Shown here one piece after another: positions 3,137 through 63,158 of a stretch of 64,000 nucleotides of DNA. This DNA comes from an uncultured Anaerolineales bacterium (GTDB lineage: Bacteria; Planctomycetota; Phycisphaerae; FEN-1346): the NCBI GenBank assembly GCA_964510295.1, contig CAZEBQ010000001.1:829-64828 (forward strand). The letters run 5' to 3'. The notes below the pieces were generated by a model that saw nothing but the letters and a program-made list of their open reading frames with translations, was not told the DNA's origin and ran no database searches. The position numbers and the translations under genes are program-made. How positions within the stretch are numbered: the first letter of the stretch is position 1; each line of letters begins with the position of its first letter.

Positions 3137-4921
3137 GACAGCCTGGAGTTCCGCGTCGGCGTCCTGTTCGGTCGATGTTCCCTCCGCCTTCTGCGGTGCG
3201 TCGACGCCTTTCGTGGCGAGGAACCGGTCGATCTCGGCCTCGATCTGGCGGAACTCCTCGCTGTCCATGGCGGCGAAGTTCCAGTTGCGGTAGAGGTCCT
3301 GGCCCTTGACGAGGCTGCGACGGGCCGTGTCCTTGTCGTCGAACTCGAAGTCGAGGTCGATGAACTCCAGGATCTTGTCGAAGACGCACTGCTGCCGCTC
3401 GGCCGACGTGGCGGCGTCCACCGGGTCGAAGGCGTTTTGCTGAAGGTACACGTTGTCGAAGAACTCGGCCTTCAGCATGACGAGAAAATCGTCGATGCTT
3501 GTGCCTTCCTCGCCGACGACCGCCATCATCTGCTTCACGTCGTTGCCGTGGCGCAGCAGGCGGCTGACGCGGGTGGTCTTCTCGGCGTCGATGATGCCAG
3601 CGTACTTGGACCACGAGTCGAGCGGGTCGATGGCGGGGTAGCGGCGGGCATCGGCCCGGGCCTGGCTCAGACCGTGGAACGCACCGACGACCTTCAGGGT
3701 GCCCTGCGTGACGGGTTCCTCGAAGTTGCCACCCGCCGGGCTGACGGTTCCGCCGATCGTGACGGAGCCGATGCGGCCGTCGGTCAGTTCAACCGCGCCG
3801 GCACGCTCGTAGAAACTGGCGATGCGGCTCTCGAGGTACGCCGGAAAGGCTTCTTCGCCGGGGATCTCTTCCAGGCGGCCCGAGACCTCGCGCAGCGCCT
3901 GGGCCCAGCGGCTGGTCGAGTCGGCCAGCAGCAGCACGTTCAGGCCCATCTGCCGGTAGTACTCGGCCAGCGTGGTGGCGGTGTAGACCGACGCCTCTCG
4001 TGCGGCCACGGGCATGGCGCTGGTGTTGCAGATGATGATAGTCCGTTCCATGAGCGATCGGCCGGTGCGCGGGTCCTGGAGTTCGGGGAACTCGCGGATC
4101 GTCTCGACCACTTCGCCCGCCCGCTCGCCGCAGGCCGCAACAATCACGATGTCTACCTGGGCGTACCGCGACGTGATCTGCTGGAGCACGGTCTTGCCGG
4201 CGCCGAACGGGCCGGGAATGCAGTACGTGCCGCCCCGGACGACCGGGAACATCGAATCGATGATCCGGACCTGGGTGACGAGCGGCTCGGAGGGCATGAG
4301 GCGGCGCCGGGAGACGTTCAGGGCACGCTTCACGGGCCACGTTTGCGTCATGGTGACGGGATGTTCGCTACCCGCCTCGTCCGCGAGGACGGCGATCTCG
4401 TCTTCGATTGTGTAGTCGCCGGGGTCGGCGATGCGGGCGACTTTCAGGTCGCCCGTCGCATTGAACGGCGCCATGATCTGATGCTCGAAGAGGCCTTCAG
4501 GGACCGTGCCCAGCGTATCGGCCGCCCGAACGGTCGCGCCCGCCTCGACCTTGGGTGTGAACGGCCACGTCTTGTCTGTCGCCAGAGCGTCGATGTAGAC
4601 GCCGGGCTTCAGGAAGAAGCCTTCCTGCTCGGCGAGTTGGTACAACGGGTTCTGGAGACCGTCGTAGACCTGCCCGAGCAGGCCGGGACCGAGGGTGACC
4701 GAGAGCATCTCCTCCCGGAACTCGACCACGTCGCCGACCTTCAGGCCGCGCGTCTCCTCGAACACCTGGAGGTCGGCCAGCCGGCCGCGGATGCGAATCA
4801 CCTCCGAAAGGAGCCTGGCCCCGTCGCCGCGACAACAGTAGCCGACGGAGTTCTGCACGACCCGGCCGGTGGTCTCGGCGATGACCATGTTTCCGAAGAC
4901 GGCTACGATTCGTCCGTTCAA
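3122..4921 (-). CDS. atpA: V-type ATP synthase catalytic subunit A
   Basis: Walker A GPFGAGKT is present in ...CIPGPFGAGKTVLQQ..., and the overall 599-aa sequence matches V/A-type A subunits. Confidence 0.9.
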   Translation of the reverse strand: MNGRIVAVFGNMVIAETTGRVVQNSVGYCCRGDGARLLSEVIRIRGRLADLQVFEETRGLKVGDVVEFREEMLSVTLGPGLLGQVYDGLQNPLYQLAEQEGFFLKPGVYIDALATDKTWPFTPKVEAGATVRAADTLGTVPEGLFEHQIMAPFNATGDLKVARIADPGDYTIEDEIAVLADEAGSEHPVTMTQTWPVKRALNVSRRRLMPSEPLVTQVRIIDSMFPVVRGGTYCIPGPFGAGKTVLQQITSRYAQVDIVIVAACGERAGEVVETIREFPELQDPRTGRSLMERTIIICNTSAMPVAAREASVYTATTLAEYYRQMGLNVLLLADSTSRWAQALREVSGRLEEIPGEEAFPAYLESRIASFYERAGAVELTDGRIGSVTIGGTVSPAGGNFEEPVTQGTLKVVGAFHGLSQARADARRYPAIDPLDSWSKYAGIIDAEKTTRVSRLLRHGNDVKQMMAVVGEEGTSIDDFLVMLKAEFFDNVYLQQNAFDPVDAATSAERQQCVFDKILEFIDLDFEFDDKDTARRSLVKGQDLYRNWNFAAMDSEEFRQIEAEIDRFLATKGVDAPQKAEGTSTEQDADAELQAVANDE

Positions 4922-4998
4922 GATTCTTGTCCTCTTGCTCGTTGCCTGGCGACGCCCCCGGCGTATTCAGCGGGGGGTGAATAGACGGTTTGTCGCGA

Positions 4999-5691
4999 TC
5001 ACGGTTCCTCGGCCGCGGGCTTGCTGAGGCGGTGCCATCGGATGAGGAGCATGAGTCTGGCGGCGTAGGCGGCCAGTTCGTCGTCGCTGAAAGAGAACCA
5101 CGCGTCGTGCTCGTTCAGCCACCGCCAACGGGCCGTGTCCAGGATGCGCGTGCCCTCGAGCGGGTTCTTGGCGCCGGCCCAGTGGCCTAGCAGATCTGCG
5201 AAGTCCTCTTCGGCGTCGCCGAGTTCCGGCGCGACGCGGTAGTCGTCCGGGTCGAGGTTGAGCGTCTCGGCCCGCCTGGCCGCCAGGGCGTTGCGCAGGG
5301 CAACCTCGTGGCCGACCCACGCCGCGAGGAACCTGCTCCCCCGCCGGCGCGCCACGGCATCCGCATGGCGAAAGTAGGCTTCCCAGACGGCGTCGGATGC
5401 GATTGGCACCGTCTCATCGCCCTTGGCCGGGGCGAGGTACGCCGGTAGCGGCTTCTCGTCGCGGACCTGGGCGGCGGTCAGCAAGGCCGGTTCGGCGTCC
5501 CGGCTTTCGCCGGTCAGTGCGGCGTCGCGCTGGAGAAGATCGTCGCCGAGCAAGATCGCGTCAACCAACGTTCGCGCCGTGGCACCGTGGCTGACCTGTT
5601 CCCGCAAGGCGGCGAGCGAGAGCGGCGGCTCAGAACCCAGGTCCGCCAGAGACGGCAGCGCGCTGGCCAGGTAGTAGTTCTCTGATGCCAT
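4999..5691 (-). CDS. DUF2764-like protein of V-ATPase operons, sitting where a C/d-type subunit would be
   Basis: A 230-aa acidic helical protein placed between atpE and atpA, as in Bacteroidetes/Chlamydiae V-ATPase operons. There is no TM segment. The assignment rests on synteny plus weak family recall. Confidence 0.5.
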   Translation of the reverse strand: MASENYYLASALPSLADLGSEPPLSLAALREQVSHGATARTLVDAILLGDDLLQRDAALTGESRDAEPALLTAAQVRDEKPLPAYLAPAKGDETVPIASDAVWEAYFRHADAVARRRGSRFLAAWVGHEVALRNALAARRAETLNLDPDDYRVAPELGDAEEDFADLLGHWAGAKNPLEGTRILDTARWRWLNEHDAWFSFSDDELAAYAARLMLLIRWHRLSKPAAEEP

Positions 5692-5700
5692 CTCGGCGTC

Positions 5701-6333
5701 CTACGCCGTGGGTTGCGTCACGGCCCGGTTGAGCATCTCGCGGAGACTCGGATTCACAAGTTCCGAAAGCGCCTCGACCACCGAGGCGAGCGTAACCTCG
5801 ATGTTGGCGCCTTCAATCTCGTACTCGAACCCGGCTTCGGCGAGCGTTCCTTTCAGGTCGATCGACACGTCGCCGCTCTCCGCCTTCTCGTGCAGATGGG
5901 CGAGCGCCCACTGGGTCAATTGGTGTTGCATGTCGGGCGCCACGTTAATCTTCATGAGGATGCGACCGTCGAGGTCGGCCTGGACGTACTGCATGACGAT
6001 GTCGTGCAGCAGGTGTTTGAGGAATTCGGGATCGCCCAGGTGAGGTTCCGCCCCGGCAGCGAGGGTGGCACGGACCGCCTGCGTCAGGGCGTCGCGCAGA
6101 CGCAGCGTGGTGTCCCGGGCCGCCAACTGGAGGTCGGTCTTGGATTTCTCCAGGGCGCTGGCTGCCTCGGCTTCGGCGGCCTCGACAATCCTGCGGGCAT
6201 TGGCCTCGGCCTCGGCGACGATGCGCTCGGCCTTGTCATTGGTGTCGGCAAGGAGCCTGTCGGCGGCGTCCTTGCCGGCCTGGACGCCCTCCTGCTGGAG
6301 TTTGGCGACGAACGATTCGATGGATTCGGCCAT
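5701..6333 (-). CDS. atpE: V-type ATP synthase subunit E
   Basis: MAESIESFVAKLQQEGVQAGKDAADRLLADTNDKAERIVAEAEANARRIVEAAE... has the coiled-coil N-terminus typical of the V-ATPase E (peripheral stalk) subunit and is the first gene of the operon. AGGAGG-like GGAGG sits upstream of the ATG. Confidence 0.75.
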   Translation of the reverse strand: MAESIESFVAKLQQEGVQAGKDAADRLLADTNDKAERIVAEAEANARRIVEAAEAEAASALEKSKTDLQLAARDTTLRLRDALTQAVRATLAAGAEPHLGDPEFLKHLLHDIVMQYVQADLDGRILMKINVAPDMQHQLTQWALAHLHEKAESGDVSIDLKGTLAEAGFEYEIEGANIEVTLASVVEALSELVNPSLREMLNRAVTQPTA

Positions 6334-53446: not shown

Positions 53447-53722
53447 GGTATTCTCCTGATAGGGGTCTGTGATTGGCTCGGGGTCGCCGTGCCTTCTGCG
53501 CTCGCATGTCGCCACGGCGGACTACAGGCCCGCGGCAAGTGGGGTAGAGATACCCGAAGTCTCCCCTCTATGGCAAGCGGAATCCGCGCCGCTTGCGTTC
53601 GCCGGTGACCGGCGCGGCCAGGGTGCACCTTGCCGGTTGACTTGAAAGGTCGGGCGGCAGGCAATGGACGATTGCCGCCGCAGGACGGTCGCGTCCGGCC
53701 CGAACGGGCCGACGGCGCGGCC

Positions 53723-53929
53723 TCACACCTGAAGGCGAGTGACGTTCTCGGCTTTAGCGCCTTTCGGGCCTTGCGTCAACTCGAATTCCACATCGTCGCC
53801 TTCGGCGAGGGTTTTGAACCCGTCGCCGGCGATGCTCGAGTAATGAACGAAGACGTCGTCTCCCCCTTCCTGTTCGATAAACCCAAAGCCCTTCTGATCG
53901 TTGAACCACTTGACTTTGCCTCGTGCCAT
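53723..53929 (-). CDS. cspA: Cold-shock protein (CspA family)
   Basis: [33 protein letters not shown]... contains the RNP1/RNP2 motifs. Confidence 0.9.
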
Positions 53930-53957
53930 GCCTTGAAACCTCCAGACTCCGAATCAC

Positions 53958-53998
53958 CAAAAAAACCACCCGGCCAAGCGGAGAACCTCCGCCGGGTG
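53958..53998 (-). terminator. Terminator-like hairpin plus U7 inside the cspA 5' leader (putative attenuator/thermosensor)
   Basis: Minus-strand reading gives ccacccggcggaggttctccgcttggccgggtgg ttttttt (9-bp GC stem plus T7), ~25 nt upstream of the cspA RBS GGAGGT. Confidence 0.45.
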
Positions 53999-54236
53999 GC
54001 TCAAGCACACAGCCTTAACACGGCCAAACGTGAACGTGGCCGGTACGAGTTGATGCGGCCGACAGGCAACAAACCTCTCGCGCTCCTCTACAACCTTCCC
54101 CAGTCTAGCCACATCGCAGTTGCCGGTCAAGAAGAAAAAGTGCGCGTTGCGCGCGGGAAAGTCGCCTTTTGACTTGCCTGAAACGGGCCCGGCGCCTACA
54201 CTGCCCCACTTGTGGACCCGGGTTCGGGCGGTTCGG

Positions 54237-55310
54237 ATGTTCTGTGCGTGCAGCGGGAGTATCGGTGACGTGACGCGAGTCAGGGCGACATGGCTCGGGG
54301 CGGGCGCCCTGACGCTGGCCGGGGTGGTCATTCTGGTTGCGGTGGGAGGCTGCGAACCTCAGGCCTGGCGCAACCAGGACGGAACCATCGTCACCGGAAA
54401 GATCGACTATCAGAAAGAGCCGGTCACCGGCCGGACGTACCATCTCTATGTTCCGAGAACCTATAACCCGAAGCGCCAGTATCCGCTTGTCCTGACGGCT
54501 CAGGGCACGTTCCCCTTCGACGAGGCGGCCGGCCAGCGCAACCGCTGGACCGACGTGGCCGAGCGGTACGGTCTGATCATCTGCTCGGCCGATTTCGATT
54601 CCGCCACCGGCTGGCTTGGCGTGCCGAACGACCGGCCCGCTCCCGAACTCGTTCGCGACGACAAGGCCGCCATAGCCATCATCCGCGAACTGAAATCACG
54701 CTACAACATCAACCCCGACGCGCTCATGATCACCGGTTGGTCGGGCGGGGGCTATCCGGCCCATTACATCGGGCTCAACCATCCCGACGTGTTCCGCTGC
54801 ATCGTCGGCCGCGCCGCCAACTTCAAGGAAAACCTCGTGACCGACGACGTGGCGCTGCGGGCGCGCCAGATGCACGTCTACGTCTTCTTCGGGGCCGGAG
54901 ACCTGCCTGGCTTCGATCAGATGAACCGCGACGCCAACTTCTGGTACACCGTCAGGGGGTTCCGCAACTTCGTCATCCGACGCCTGCCGGGCGGCCACGA
55001 CCCCAACCAGGTGGAGGCCGCACGCTATTTCCTGAACATCGTCAACCACTGGCCGGCCGTTCACATCGACGCCAGCACCACCAAGGGCAGGGCGCCGCTG
55101 ACGGTCAGGTTCCGCGCCCTCGTCCGCGACCCCGACTCGCCCGACGGACGAGTCGATTCGGTGCTCTGGAACCTCGGCGACAACACCGTCTCGGCCCGGG
55201 CCGAGGTCACCCATACCTACACCCGGCCCGGCCTCTACAACGTGTTCCTGACGGTGGTGGATCTCGACAATCATCATGAATATACCCAGACGTGGGTCCG
55301 CGTGAACTGA
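54237..55310 (+). CDS. Alpha/beta-hydrolase esterase (PHB-depolymerase/esterase-like) lipoprotein with a C-terminal PKD domain
   Basis: A lipobox AVGGC and GWSGGG (GxSxG) are present. The C-terminal ...LTVRFRALVRDPDSPDGRVDSVLWNLGDNTVSARAEVTHTYTRPGLYNVFLTVVD is a PKD-type module. Confidence 0.6.
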   Translation: MFCACSGSIGDVTRVRATWLGAGALTLAGVVILVAVGGCEPQAWRNQDGTIVTGKIDYQKEPVTGRTYHLYVPRTYNPKRQYPLVLTAQGTFPFDEAAGQRNRWTDVAERYGLIICSADFDSATGWLGVPNDRPAPELVRDDKAAIAIIRELKSRYNINPDALMITGWSGGGYPAHYIGLNHPDVFRCIVGRAANFKENLVTDDVALRARQMHVYVFFGAGDLPGFDQMNRDANFWYTVRGFRNFVIRRLPGGHDPNQVEAARYFLNIVNHWPAVHIDASTTKGRAPLTVRFRALVRDPDSPDGRVDSVLWNLGDNTVSARAEVTHTYTRPGLYNVFLTVVDLDNHHEYTQTWVRVN

Positions 55311-55442: not shown

Positions 55443-56669
55443 GTGGCTAAGAAGGACGGAACCTCGCACCCTGCGTTCAGCCTGCCGGAAGGCCACACCC
55501 TCTTTACAAGTGAGGCGGTTACGGTGGGCCATCCCGACAAGATGGCCGACCAGATATCCGACGCGGTCCTCGATGCCATGATCGGCCAGGACCCGACCAG
55601 CCGCGTCGCTTGCGAGACCCTTGTCACCACCGGCATGTGCGTCGTGGCGGGCGAGGTGACCACGAAGGCGCAGGTCGATATCCGCGACGTCGTCCGCGGC
55701 ACGATCCACGACATCGGGTACACCGACGCTGCCATGGGCTTCGACTTCGAACATTGCGCCGTGCTCCTGGCGCTCGACCGCCAGAGCCCCGACATCGCCA
55801 TGGGTGTCGATGCCTCGGAGGGCAAGGAGCAGGGGGCCGGCGACCAGGGCATCATGTTCGGCTACGCCTGCCGCGAGACACCTGAACTGATGCCCATGCC
55901 CATCCAATTGGCACACCAGTTGTGCATTCGCCTCAAGCAGATTCGCGAAGCCGCCGAGGTCCGCTGGCTGCGGCCCGACGGCAAGAGCCAGGTCACCGTC
56001 CAGTACGACGAGAACGGGAGGGCCGTCCGGCTCCACACGGTCGTCGTCTCGACGCAGCACGCCGACCAGGTGGACGGCAAGACCGTCTCCAACGAGGAAA
56101 TCCGACGCGAGATCATTGAGCGGGTCATCAAGCCCGTTGCCCCCGCTGAACTCCTCGACGACGACACCATCTGCCACATCAACCCCACCGGCCGCTTCGT
56201 CGTCGGCGGACCCCAGGGCGACTGCGGCCTGACCGGACGCAAGATCATCGTCGATACCTACGGCGGCAAGGGAAGCCACGGCGGTGGGGCCTTCAGCGGA
56301 AAGGACCCCTCCAAAGTCGACCGCAGCGCCGCCTACATGGCTCGACACGTCGCAAAGAATCTCGTTGCGGCCGAACTCGCCGACGAATGCGAGGTCCAAC
56401 TTGCCTACGCCATCGGCGTCGCCGATCCGTTGAGCATCCGCGCAGATACGAACGGCACCGGCAAGATTCCCGACGTCGCCCTGGCGAAGGTCATCCGCGA
56501 CGTGTTCCCCCTGAAGCCGCGCGAGATGATCGAGTACCTGAACCTCCTGCGTCCCATCTTCCGCAAGACCGCCGAGGGCGGCCACTTCGGCCGCGAACTC
56601 CCCGAGTTCACCTGGGAAGAACTCCGCAAAGTCGACGAACTGAAACAGGCCGCCCGCAACTGGAAGTAG
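55443..56669 (+). CDS. metK: S-adenosylmethionine synthetase
   Basis: [17 protein letters not shown]..., ...[12 protein letters not shown]..., [19 protein letters not shown] are universal MetK motifs. It has a GTG start. Confidence 0.9.
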
Positions 56670-56784
56670 CCGGGCACGGCGCCGCAGGGACCGGATTCCC
56701 CGTGCACCAGGGGCTTGTCAACAGTTGGGTGCTCTACGACAACTCCGGGCCGACGCCGCGCTTCCTGGCGGCGGGAGACAATCG

Positions 56785-56967
56785 ATGACTCGAAAGATCA
56801 TCGGAACGAAAGACCCGGACATTCTCGGTTCGATGGCGGCACTCCGGCGGGCAGCGAAGCGGGCGCTGCGAGAGGGCCTGGAAACCGGGACGCCCGTCTG
56901 GGTCATCAAGAACGGACGCATGGTAGACCTGACACGCGGCAAGCGCCCCAAGGCCCGGGCCCGGTAG
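56785..56967 (+). CDS. Small basic hypothetical protein (60 aa)
   Basis: MTRKIIGTKDPDILGSMAALRRAAKRALREGLETGTPVWVIKNGRMVDLTRGKRPKARAR. Its ATG overlaps (ATGA) the stop of a 28-codon ORF (GTG 56703) reading VHQGLVNSWVLYDNSGPTPRFLAAGDNR. Confidence 0.35.
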   Translation: MTRKIIGTKDPDILGSMAALRRAAKRALREGLETGTPVWVIKNGRMVDLTRGKRPKARAR

Positions 56968-57010: not shown

Positions 57011-57038
57011 CCGCGGCGGGTCTCCGTACCCGCCGCGA
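57011..57038. repeat. REP-like hairpin (solo copy)
   Basis: ccgcggcgggtctccgtacccgccgcg. Confidence 0.6.
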
Positions 57039-57127: not shown

Positions 57128-57874
57128 TCATGGGAGGTTGAAAACATTCTGGCGAGAGGAGTCAATCAGGTCATTCTCGGCCTGATCCAAGACAACCCCC
57201 TTGTATTCGGCATATGCCCCGAGAATACGAAACGCAAACCGCCAGTGCCAGTCCATGAAAAGGAAATCGGTGACCAAGGGACCCTCCTCGATTGTCAGCG
57301 GAGAGGAATGAACAACTCCGCTGAGGAATCTCTGGATCAGTTCGTACTCCGATTCGAAACCAGCCGCTTTGGCCAGGTCGCGGAGGCTGCCAGAGTACCA
57401 GGTGTTGCGCACTTTGCCCTTCTTGTTCGAGTATCTCGCCTTCACCGCCATAAAACGCTTCTTGATTTCCGGTTCCGCATTCGGCCGTTTGGGGCTATTC
57501 CTGACCCGCTTCGCGAGGGCTGTCCTGCTGGCGTCCATCAGATCGATACGGCGTTTTCGCTCGACATCCCTGAAGTCCAAGAACAGTTCTGCTCGCTCGT
57601 CTCGTCTGTTCGGGTCCGCCATGATGTATAGCCCTTGAAGCATCGCGTCGTATATGCTTCGAAGAATCGATGCCGCATCGAACCCATAGTCGGGGACAGC
57701 GTTGTTCCGAAGGACGGCCAAGGAATTCCCGGACGCGACGATGCGCCTCGCGATCATCTCCATGGCAATTGCCACAGAGCATGGAATCTGCACAGCGTTG
57801 AGCTTGACTGTAATTCTGTTGGCAACTGCCCGCTGGTATTCGAGAATATCGTTGTCGGACAAATCCGATGTCAT
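57128..57874 (-). CDS. Hypothetical protein in a low-GC (~50%) island, immediately downstream of lexA and apparently co-transcribed with it. It contains an R-x6-H motif (possible HEPN-like).
   Basis: A 248-aa soluble protein, MTSDLSDNDILEYQRAVANRITVK...ELIQRFLSGVVHSSPL...; no Walker or TM motifs are present. GAGGTG RBS lies 8 nt upstream of the ATG. There is a 30-nt gap to the lexA stop. GC content is clearly lower than the flanks. Confidence 0.6.
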   Translation of the reverse strand: MTSDLSDNDILEYQRAVANRITVKLNAVQIPCSVAIAMEMIARRIVASGNSLAVLRNNAVPDYGFDAASILRSIYDAMLQGLYIMADPNRRDERAELFLDFRDVERKRRIDLMDASRTALAKRVRNSPKRPNAEPEIKKRFMAVKARYSNKKGKVRNTWYSGSLRDLAKAAGFESEYELIQRFLSGVVHSSPLTIEEGPLVTDFLFMDWHWRFAFRILGAYAEYKGVVLDQAENDLIDSSRQNVFNLP

Positions 57875-57904
57875 TGCAGCACCTCGTGTCGCGTGAGCCC
57901 CGGG

Positions 57905-58498
57905 TCAGTACTTCCGCAAAACGCCGATGACGACCCCTTGAATCCGGCAGGTCTTGACGTAGATGGGCTTCATCCTTTCGTTGGCGGGCTGGAGGCGGAT
58001 GCGGCCTTTCTCGCGGTAGAACGTCTTGAGGGTGGCGTCGCCACCATCGAGGAGGGCGACGACCGTCTCGCCGTTTCGGGCTTGCGACCGTTTTTCGACG
58101 ATGACGTAGTCGCCGTCGCGAATCTGCTCGTCGATCATCGAGTCGCCGCGAACCTGGAGGACGAAGGTCTCGCCGGCGCGGCCCCGGAAGAGTTCCTCGA
58201 GGTCGAGGATCTCGGCGTCTTCAACGGCCTCGATGGGGCTGCCGGCGGCGATAAGGCCGACGAGCGGCAGGGCGGTCGGCCGGCCGGAAAGTTCCGGCGC
58301 CAGTTCGATCGCACGGCTGAGCGTCGGCCGGCGGCGCAGGGCGCCGCGGGCCTCAAGCGCCTCGATGTGCTCGAACACCGTCGGCCGGGAGACGCCCAGG
58401 TGGTCGGCGATCTCCTGCATCGTCGGCGCATAATCGTTCTCCGCGACGTAGTCGCGGATAAATACGACGATATCATGTTGGCGACGCGTCAGGTTCAT
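57905..58498 (-). CDS. lexA: LexA repressor (SOS regulator, S24 peptidase)
   Basis: MNLTRRQHDIVVFIRDYVAENDYAPTMQEIADHLGVSRPTVFEHIEALEARG (wHTH), ...VRGDSMIDEQIRDGDYVIVE... (Ser) and ...ATLKTF... (Lys) are present. The long upstream in-frame extension in the ORF track is Pro/Ala-rich junk. Confidence 0.9.
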   Translation of the reverse strand: MNLTRRQHDIVVFIRDYVAENDYAPTMQEIADHLGVSRPTVFEHIEALEARGALRRRPTLSRAIELAPELSGRPTALPLVGLIAAGSPIEAVEDAEILDLEELFRGRAGETFVLQVRGDSMIDEQIRDGDYVIVEKRSQARNGETVVALLDGGDATLKTFYREKGRIRLQPANERMKPIYVKTCRIQGVVIGVLRKY

Positions 58499-59309
58499 GG
58501 CGTTCCTCCGGAATTCGATGGTGCCCGTATGTGACAGGCGTCGTGCGCGCGGCAGGTACGATGCCGTGGGAACGTGCCCCGCTGCTCCCGCAGCGGGCTC
58601 GAACCGCGGCGGGGTCGAACCGTGGCGCTTGGCCGGCACGGCACATTCGCAGCACGAAACGCGGACGAAGGAGGGGAGGGCCGGAGCGCCCCCCAATCGG
58701 TGCTCCGGCCCCGCGTGGTCTCGCGCCGCCGGTGGGGGCGGCGACGCCAAAGACCGCTGGCTTTCGTCCTGCCGCGCGGCCGGGGCCGGGGTGCGTGGGG
58801 GACACCTCGGCCGGGCCATCGGTGTGCGGCGAGACGTTGGGTGCGCTGACCGGTCGTGGGGATGGCCGCCTGTGGGGCAGGGCGGCCACGAGATGGCGTC
58901 GGCTGCGTCCTGGGCCGGCCGGCGTGCCAGCGCGGGGGGAGGCGGGCGGGCCGAGGGGGGCACGGGTTGCCCTTCGACCGCGCCCGATCCTCTTCCCACG
59001 TGTTCGCTGGCATCGGGCGGCGCAAGCGCCGTCGACAAACCGGTCACTGACCGGCGGCCGTCGAATCGGGCGTGCGGAGTTTGCTTGCACTCCGGTCCGA
59101 GGACCGCTATAAGCGCTTTGGCTGCTCTCGAAAAACGGTTGTCAAAGAGCCGAGTACGACACCCGTCATGATGGGCGGTAGGGTATCCTAACAGCGCCCT
59201 AACGTCAAGAGGTAAATCGGCCTGAGGGCGAGAAAACTTGACCTTTTCTGGCCGAAAAAGCCTAACAGAGTCCTAACTCGTTGTCGGGGGCGAACTTACG
59301 TCGCGATGT

Positions 59310-62739: not shown

Positions 62740-62816
<77 letters not shown>

Positions 62817-63158
62817 CGCGTCTCGACGGCCAGCCGTACGGCGCTGCTGGTCCGAGCACAAATGCCCGGCCGACGAACGGCCCATTCTCCGCCCGCGTGG
62901 CGGCGTGTCAAGCGAAAACGTCGCCCAATCGGCGATGCGGGTGTGGCAACGATTTCTGGCATGGGACGATTTCCTGCGGCTTGGCCGTAGCGCCGGGGTT
63001 TATCCCCGGCGCATCCTGGGCGGCGCCGCCGCCAACGGCCGCCGGGCATGAAGCCCGGCGCTACAACCGCCTGTGATCGCCAGAAAGAATTGCCCCAATC
63101 GGCGATGCGGGCGCACCTGGCCCTGGTGGCGGCGCGGCCGGAGTGCCCGCACGGAATC

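Follow-up and report, generated by a model that had tools for sequence, protein, structure and literature searches.

Does a gene of foreign composition that lies directly behind lexA form an SOS-triggered defence or toxin module, or does its position reflect where it happened to land? This question is raised by a 248-aa gene (57128-57874, minus strand) in the 64,000-nt stretch of DNA analysed here, hereafter called the window. The original prediction had described it as a foreign gene fused into the lexA operon of a Planctomycete-like genome and had proposed an SOS-induced effector related to HEPN RNases. Its anatomical part was confirmed. The 248-codon ORF is intact and runs on the same strand as lexA (57905-58498, minus strand), whose 197-aa product, the SOS repressor, matches TIGR00498 (E = 3.2e-54) and the Pfam domains Peptidase_S24 and LexA_DNA_bind. 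In line with the proposed host, the nearest LexA proteins are named as Planctomycetota of the class Phycisphaerae. The spacer between the two genes (57875-57904, minus strand) measures 30 nt as announced and, as read from the sequence, contains a GAGGTG ribosome-binding site located 5 nt ahead of the ATG. Simple scans found neither a terminator-like nor a promoter-like site in this spacer, and no sigma-70-like site on the minus strand from 57875 to 58500, a range that includes all of lexA and in which such a scan covers Planctomycete promoters poorly. In this arrangement, lexA would be the first gene of the transcription unit. The gene was also correctly said not to be part of an imuA-imuB-dnaE2 cassette, as no Pfam or NCBIfam match to ImuA, ImuB or DnaE2 was found after lexA and the 3' side is occupied instead by a convergent 60-aa ORF, followed by metK.

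By comparing the gene with 43 ORFs picked across the window, we found that its G+C content (54.4%) is the lowest of all (mean 66.1%, sd 3.1) and that its GC3 is 67.5% compared to a mean of 83% (sd 5.6), with values of 84-85% in lexA (0.843), metK and pepP. The atypical composition that had been claimed is thus real, but the figures attached to it were too extreme, since the gene has 54% and not about 50% G+C and the window 66% and not about 68%. Together with the absence of the gene at this site in close relatives, the low G+C and GC3 uphold its foreign origin. Since dN/dS ranges from 0.10 to 0.24 against five homologues, where dS is not saturated, the gene is, judging from these ratios, a functional coding sequence under purifying selection and, being intact, it is presumably expressed. 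Also, the G+C content of the family gene is lower than that of its flanks in nearly all homologue loci, which fits continuing horizontal movement.

The protein had been thought to carry no recognisable signature. This does not hold, as it matches Pfam DUF5677 (PF18928) over essentially the full length of the profile, with residues 43-196 aligned to profile positions 9-156 of 166, and with a score (66.5 bits, E = 3.9e-18) well above the gathering cut-off of 27.1. The protein is therefore a clear member of DUF5677, a family whose function is uncharacterised. A word-indexed search returned 39 close relatives (43-87% identity), all of which carry PF18928 (39/39) and the named ones of which come from Planctomycetota, while an exhaustive profile search yielded 455 cluster representatives at E ≤ 1e-3. 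The subfamily of the window copy was found in our searches only in Planctomycetota genomes and metagenomes, which sets it apart within DUF5677. We aligned 84 diverse members (25-44% identity), each of them matching the PF18928 model (84/84). R72, W159 and H189 are invariant in this alignment and shared by the window protein, and R44, D66, D76, Q80, Y160, E176 and R216 are conserved in at least 90% of the sequences.

A confident AlphaFold2 model built from 31 sequences (pLDDT 89.6, pTM 0.85) contains ten helices. The protein is predicted to be cytoplasmic, all-helical and about 250 residues long, and its family keeps a set of polar residues. Foldseek searches of PDB and BFVD with this model gave nothing below E = 0.15, a profile search of PDB sequences returned designed repeat proteins only, and neither by structure nor by profile was the protein connected with a characterised family. 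PADLOC (PADLOC-DB 2.0) contained no family for the protein at E up to 1, PHROGs, phage and plasmid searches gave no match, and NCBIfam gave no meaningful one. On this basis, a known defence, phage or plasmid gene was ruled out. IMG/VR contributed two weak partial matches only, with 31% identity over 73 aa. Rare fusions exist in the family, namely HTH_XRE-DUF5677 (P0354), a single case among the 94 relatives listed, and GNAT-DUF5677 (P0331). With the exception of these XRE-HTH and GNAT fusions, the N-terminal extensions of longer relatives were uninformative.

The proposed HEPN assignment was based on an R-x6-H motif. The string RFLSGVVH is indeed present, but it does not have the properties of a meaningful motif. 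At the position of its arginine, R182, homologues with 43-87% identity have K, S, W, M, L, Y or H, and R182 lies outside the conserved columns of the 84-member alignment, in which H189 is invariant. Moreover, the consensus LSGxVHSS has no arginine four to six residues ahead of this histidine. Since R182 is conserved neither in close homologues nor family-wide, the pair does not qualify as a HEPN catalytic motif, and the DUF5677 family differs in this respect from HEPN toxins and Abi proteins such as SO_3166, MNT-HEPN, AbiV and AbiU2, which are defined by Rx4-6H. The HEPN domain is also about half the size of the DUF5677 protein. No HEPN Pfam model matched the window protein at E up to 1, and a weak HEPN_Apea match was found in only one of the 84 relatives (E = 0.016). 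The AlphaFold2 and Foldseek comparison with PDB and BFVD returned no specific match, and the model resembles HEPN proteins no more closely than it does helical bundles that are unrelated. Together, these data do not support the view that the gene product is a HEPN RNase toxin.

To what extent is the gene linked to lexA elsewhere? We collected 38 homologue loci, of which 29 extend 650 nt or more upstream of the gene and represent about 19 independent contexts. lexA was found beside the DUF5677 gene in none of these ~19. Both genes occur together in only one other locus, L010, whose sequence matches the window at 100% identity, so that the window copy is alone, among the DUF5677 genes found, in lying directly behind lexA. 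Conversely, six lexA loci (L034-L039) that share with the window the synteny accC-accB-pepP / lexA / metK have no DUF5677 gene, and four of them encode LexA proteins 92-97% identical to that of the window. Because no independent homologue lies with lexA and six related lexA loci are without the gene, the linkage is, as far as these loci tell, a one-off of one Phycisphaerae lineage and not a conserved system, contrary to the idea of a recurring SOS-triggered module.

The comparison of these loci also delimits what is specific to the window. In blastn alignments with L034, L035, L036 and L037, homology ends at 57907 and restarts at 56967 or 56695; the segment 56968-57904 is absent from the sister haplotypes with 97% identical LexA. 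The exact point of divergence is the lexA stop codon, which is TGA here and TAG in L035. On the other side, metK (55443-56669, plus strand), recognised by ORF translation and by the S-AdoMet synthetase Pfam domains in L034-L039, forms the right-hand border of the variable region. Between these flanks, L039 (LexA 78% identical) has nothing ahead of metK, and L038 (79%) has rSAM_link_UDG (TIGR03916, E = 5.6e-94), a radical-SAM gene with a putative role in DNA repair. In L037 (92%), an N-terminal remnant of rSAM_link_UDG (residues 4-124) is accompanied by a HEAT-like gene and by an intact zeta-like toxin gene with a 60-aa partner. L035 (97%), which represents the empty state of the site, has only a 46-aa basic ORF, at a distance of 15 nt from the lexA stop and followed by metK. 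In L034 and L036 (97%), the L035-type spacer and its 46-aa ORF are combined with a toxin remnant and 60-aa ORF, this toxin-antitoxin remnant being bracketed by a 120-nt duplicate from the 3' end of metK. A 98-aa ORF after lexA in L034 and L036 overlaps this duplicate on the reverse strand and is probably spurious. Since the content of the slot differs from locus to locus around fixed lexA and metK flanks, the lexA-metK interval is a hypervariable turnover hotspot, and the DUF5677 gene is one of the several contents that it can have. Like 3'-end genomic hotspots and integration islands, it holds alternative contents in near-identical strains; unlike them, the DUF5677 unit comes without an integrase, attC or flanking repeat.

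In the window, the hotspot also holds a decayed zeta-toxin module. The convergent 60-aa ORF (MTRKIIG..., 56785-56967, plus strand) is 88.6% identical in DNA to an ORF of L037 that lies 3' of an intact AAA_33/Zeta_toxin gene, and thus corresponds to the downstream partner of a zeta-like toxin gene, here orphaned. Ahead of it, comparison with L037 identified the C-terminal remnant of a zeta-like (AAA_33) toxin (56690-56784, plus strand), which ends in LVNSWVLYDNSGPTPRFLAAGDNR before the stop codon, while the L037 protein (174-204 aa; AAA_33 E = 1.9e-11, Zeta_toxin E = 1.9e-08) ends in YQMLVNSWVLYDNSGPTPRRLAAGDNP. About 528 nt of the toxin gene are deleted relative to L037, with a blastn junction near 56706, and this deletion is common to the window, L034 and L036.

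The extent of the DNA that arrived with the gene can be read from its closest homologue locus, L011, in which the protein is 86% identical and the gene sits after an mla operon. The segment shared with L011 (57083-57891, minus strand; blastn, 88.8% DNA identity) consists only of the ORF flanked by 17 nt of upstream and 45 nt of downstream DNA, and begins 13 nt past the lexA stop. Since the shared DNA covers just 57891-57083, the apparent transferred unit includes the ribosome-binding site and no promoter region. A repeat search revealed no convincing flanking repeat or transposition signature around the unit, and no integrase was found among the neighbours in the window or in the homologue loci. 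A promoterless unit could suggest an integron cassette; this was rejected, as inspection by eye of the 150 nt downstream of the gene in 14 homologue loci, and of the folds predicted for them, disclosed no conserved attC-like 3' element.

How, then, might the gene be expressed? Physically, it is joined to the lexA operon as had been claimed, with no more than 17 nt of its own upstream DNA and a 30-nt gap in which a sequence scan for termination found no terminator-like site. Because this gap is free of a terminator and the unit promoterless, the simplest explanation is read-through from lexA, and the DUF5677 gene is likely co-transcribed with lexA. At the other end of the unit, repeat search and RNA folding located a perfect 10-bp G+C-rich hairpin (CGCGGCGGGT / ACCCGCCGCG, 6-nt loop) at 57012-57037, between the convergent genes. 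It is a candidate bidirectional terminator without a T-run and may end the lexA-DUF5677 unit. lexA is autoregulated in other bacteria, and it is from this general rule that SOS control of the DUF5677 gene would follow. By scanning 58499-59300 for GAAC-N4-GTTC and TGTTC-N4-GAACA, we found neither of these Gram-positive- and Verrucomicrobia-type sites, although the motif used in Phycisphaerae may differ. In E. coli, the lexA operon has a substantial basal expression and is never fully off, which argues against the presence of an unguarded toxin in such a place.

Clues to a role were sought in the surroundings of the homologues. Their neighbours are heterogeneous, different in every independent locus and in many cases housekeeping genes, without any recurring partner gene across the homologue loci. 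In particular, no small antitoxin gene of the kind that defines type II toxin-antitoxin systems is conserved next to the gene across independent loci, the convergent 60-aa ORF of the window belonging to the zeta-like module. Some homologues lie by TIR, ResIII, AbiEii, Schlafen-AlbA_2 or toxin-antitoxin genes. One island contains a DNA methylase, AbiEii, PemK and HEPN_AbiU2; a Schlafen-AlbA_2 (putative DNA-binding) gene precedes the homologue by 90 nt in L002-L004; and a resolvase and a zeta-like toxin are found by the homologue in L005 and L033. The zeta-like toxins of L033 and L037 share 50% identity, so that a toxin of this type and a DUF5677 gene face each other convergently in two distinct settings. 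Other neighbours include a TIR/ThsB-like protein, a ResIII/REase_III helicase, RtcB with archease, and a transposase, and the PADLOC matches among them are ThsB/TIR, REase_III, PDC-S66 and PDC-S70. The resolvase, toxin-antitoxin and defence genes beside some relatives resemble the situation described for Bacillota in a preprint, in which DUF5677 is enriched beside serine recombinases (PMC12632615). In the same work, the one DUF5677 ORF tested in Enterococcus fell outside the five of nine candidates with antiphage activity. DUF5677 may have a defence-related role.

Taking these observations together, we consider it probable that the gene is a horizontally acquired, promoterless member of DUF5677, read through from lexA and linked to it by accident. 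According to this scenario, a unit of about 0.8 kb, made of the ORF and its ribosome-binding site, would have been acquired from within Planctomycetota and would have landed 13 nt past the lexA stop, in the lexA-metK hotspot. It would most probably be transcribed by read-through from the lexA promoter and, if lexA is autoregulated here, its expression would be basal and raised by DNA damage. The linkage would then be an accident of the landing site in one lineage; elsewhere the family is represented by solitary accessory genes in variable regions, where defence, toxin-antitoxin and mobile genes are sometimes found as well. As to the role itself, we guess that the protein serves as an accessory factor in conflict or stress, does no harm at basal expression and is not a HEPN RNase toxin. 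It might be a single-gene effector whose activity is gated, or it might serve DNA-binding regulators as a sensor or partner domain.

Three other explanations were weighed against this one. The gene could be an independent passenger, expressed from a promoter in the 3' end of lexA or barely expressed at all, unconnected to SOS and with a neutral adjacency. The site, a hotspot with several alternative contents, would suit a passenger, as would the lack of a known-type SOS box upstream of lexA and the expression of the family from other contexts elsewhere; however, just 17 nt upstream of the ATG arrived with the gene, no promoter-like match was found on the minus strand in 57875-58500, the gap is free of a terminator, and a gene kept intact by purifying selection is presumably expressed. 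We regard this explanation as unlikely. The original prediction, in which the SOS response switches on a HEPN-type RNase toxin or an effector of abortive infection, seems to us somewhat more doubtful still. The R-x6-H string and the AbiEii, PemK, HEPN_AbiU2, TIR, ResIII and RtcB genes adjoining some homologues speak in its favour, but they are opposed by the variability of R182 in close homologues and across the 84 members, by the Foldseek result (nothing below E = 0.15 in PDB and BFVD), by a HEPN Pfam match confined to 1/84 members at E = 0.016, by the absence of a PADLOC family and by the lack of a conserved antitoxin partner. An operon that in E. coli is never fully off is, moreover, a poor site for an unguarded toxin. 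The Enterococcus DUF5677 ORF was not among the 5/9 active antiphage genes (PMC12632615).

The explanation to which we give least weight, and which we hold to be very improbable, makes DUF5677 a partner of DNA-binding repressors (a sensor, co-repressor or anti-repressor) that would here modulate LexA and the SOS response, or else assigns to the gene a DNA-damage function replacing that of the lost radical-SAM repair gene. It draws on the HTH_XRE-DUF5677 fusion P0354, on the AlbA_2 gene lying 90 nt before the homologue in L002-L004 and on the occupation of a slot that holds rSAM_link_UDG in relatives. Yet most homologues have no adjoining regulator or repair gene, the fusion is one case among the 94 relatives listed, and no other homologue was found near lexA.

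The preferred reading, accidental capture behind lexA with read-through, can be compared with known cargo. lexA-linked and LexA-regulated genes include the imuA-imuB-dnaE2 cassettes, the rSAM_link_UDG (TIGR03916) repair pair and the SOS-controlled toxins tisB, symE and yafNO. As with such cargo, the DUF5677 gene lies directly 3' of lexA on the same strand, so that it is probably co-controlled, and the relative L038 carries rSAM_link_UDG in the identical slot. In contrast, DUF5677 has no similarity to those proteins, its linkage is not conserved and no SOS box of a known type was found. With a catalogued family and a singleton linkage, the locus does not found a class of systems of its own; what it adds is a further member of DUF5677, strain-specific and located in a hotspot. 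If read-through is true, the locus would show clearly how, in nature, an accessory gene without a promoter acquires stress-responsive expression behind the gene of a global repressor, and the lexA-metK interval would be a compact model of hotspot turnover in near-identical Phycisphaerae strains. The main practical value lies in the context clue for DUF5677: its genes are mobile and low in G+C, some of them are located in islands of defence or toxin-antitoxin genes, and fusions to XRE-HTH or GNAT domains occur now and then. A bolder version, which we find improbable, would see in DUF5677 a new family of stress-gated single-protein conflict effectors or repressor-partner modules, captured by the lexA operon and armed by DNA damage or prophage induction, with the slot acting as a swap site for SOS-controlled cargo (radical-SAM repair gene, small basic ORF, DUF5677).

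Finally, the roughly 800 nt upstream of lexA form a G+C-rich spacer, which contains G+C-rich palindromes and differs among close relatives. In L034-L036 a 204-aa ORF is called in this spacer. We rejected it as a coding sequence because the region has a repeat with a period of 16 nt, present in 0, 2 or 10.4 copies, and because the window and L037 do not preserve the frame. In the window, this repeat occurs as two tandem copies at 58588-58619, and its copy number varies among relatives, from none in L034 to 10.4 in L037.

The slot directly behind lexA, which is held by the DUF5677 gene in the window, has other contents in the syntenic lexA loci of related genomes. In L034, L035 and L036, whose LexA proteins are 97% identical to that of the window, it is occupied by a highly basic 46-aa ORF (MMPRKATSRRVAKVASKQLRSKRTGRPAKTTAGSALSQREKRRPKR; 5146-5286 in L035, with the same spacer in L034 and L036), which starts 15 nt past the lexA stop and is preceded by a GAGGGAG ribosome-binding site. 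No family match was found for the L035 ORF. In the more distant relative L038 (79% LexA identity), lexA is followed by a radical-SAM gene with a putative role in DNA modification/repair (TIGR03916, E 5.6e-94; 4835-5959, + strand), of which L037 (92% LexA identity) keeps only a remnant covering residues 4-124 (5651-6229, + strand). The TIGR03916 gene is probably what the slot behind lexA originally carried in this clade.

The window also carries a decayed zeta-like (AAA_33/Zeta_toxin) toxin module, located in the interval from metK to the DUF5677 gene (56690-56967, + strand). The toxin has been reduced to its final 30 or so codons by the loss of about 528 nt (junction near 56706); the 60-aa ORF downstream is intact. 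A complete pair of zeta-like toxin and downstream ORF is found in L037 (6849-7642, - strand). In L034 and L036, the toxin-antitoxin remnant is bracketed by a duplicate of the metK 3' end, 120 nt long and 90% identical to window positions 56576-56695 (L034 5837-5956; L036 5374-5493). L035 encodes a LexA protein identical to that of L034 and L036, yet it has a single copy of the metK 3' end and lacks the remnant. The duplicate, which is absent from the window, looks like an att-type duplication with presence/absence polymorphism.

A zeta-like toxin also lies near a DUF5677 homologue on a Phycisphaerae chromosome (L005 7044-8132; L033 6792-7883), where a resolvase, a small ORF and the toxin are arranged convergently with the homologue. 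This toxin is 50% identical to that of L037. The DUF5677/zeta-like pairing therefore occurs in two separate contexts. Domain fusions of DUF5677 are rare: P0354 (L042 1318-2424), whose flanking genes are an 87-aa ORF that overlaps it and a Peptidase_S8 gene, has an XRE-type HTH at its N-terminus, and P0331 has an N-terminal GNAT acetyltransferase.

On the other side of lexA, the lexA-pepP spacer spans about 800 nt (58499-59300) and is very rich in G+C, reaching 79%. Within it lies a tandem repeat of 16-nt units, present twice in the window (58588-58619), 10.4 times in L037 (4669-4834) and not at all in L034. The spacer had no match in Rfam and may be regulatory; the 204-aa ORF that gene callers place on it is probably spurious.

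Elsewhere in the window, a second G+C dip (57-58%, 53750-54200) lies upstream of the gene at 54120-55310. Its only ORF (53630-54172), with the lowest GC3 in the window, looks non-coding. Rfam and ARAGORN both detect a single RNA gene in the window, a tRNA-Asp (GTC) at 62741-62817 (- strand).
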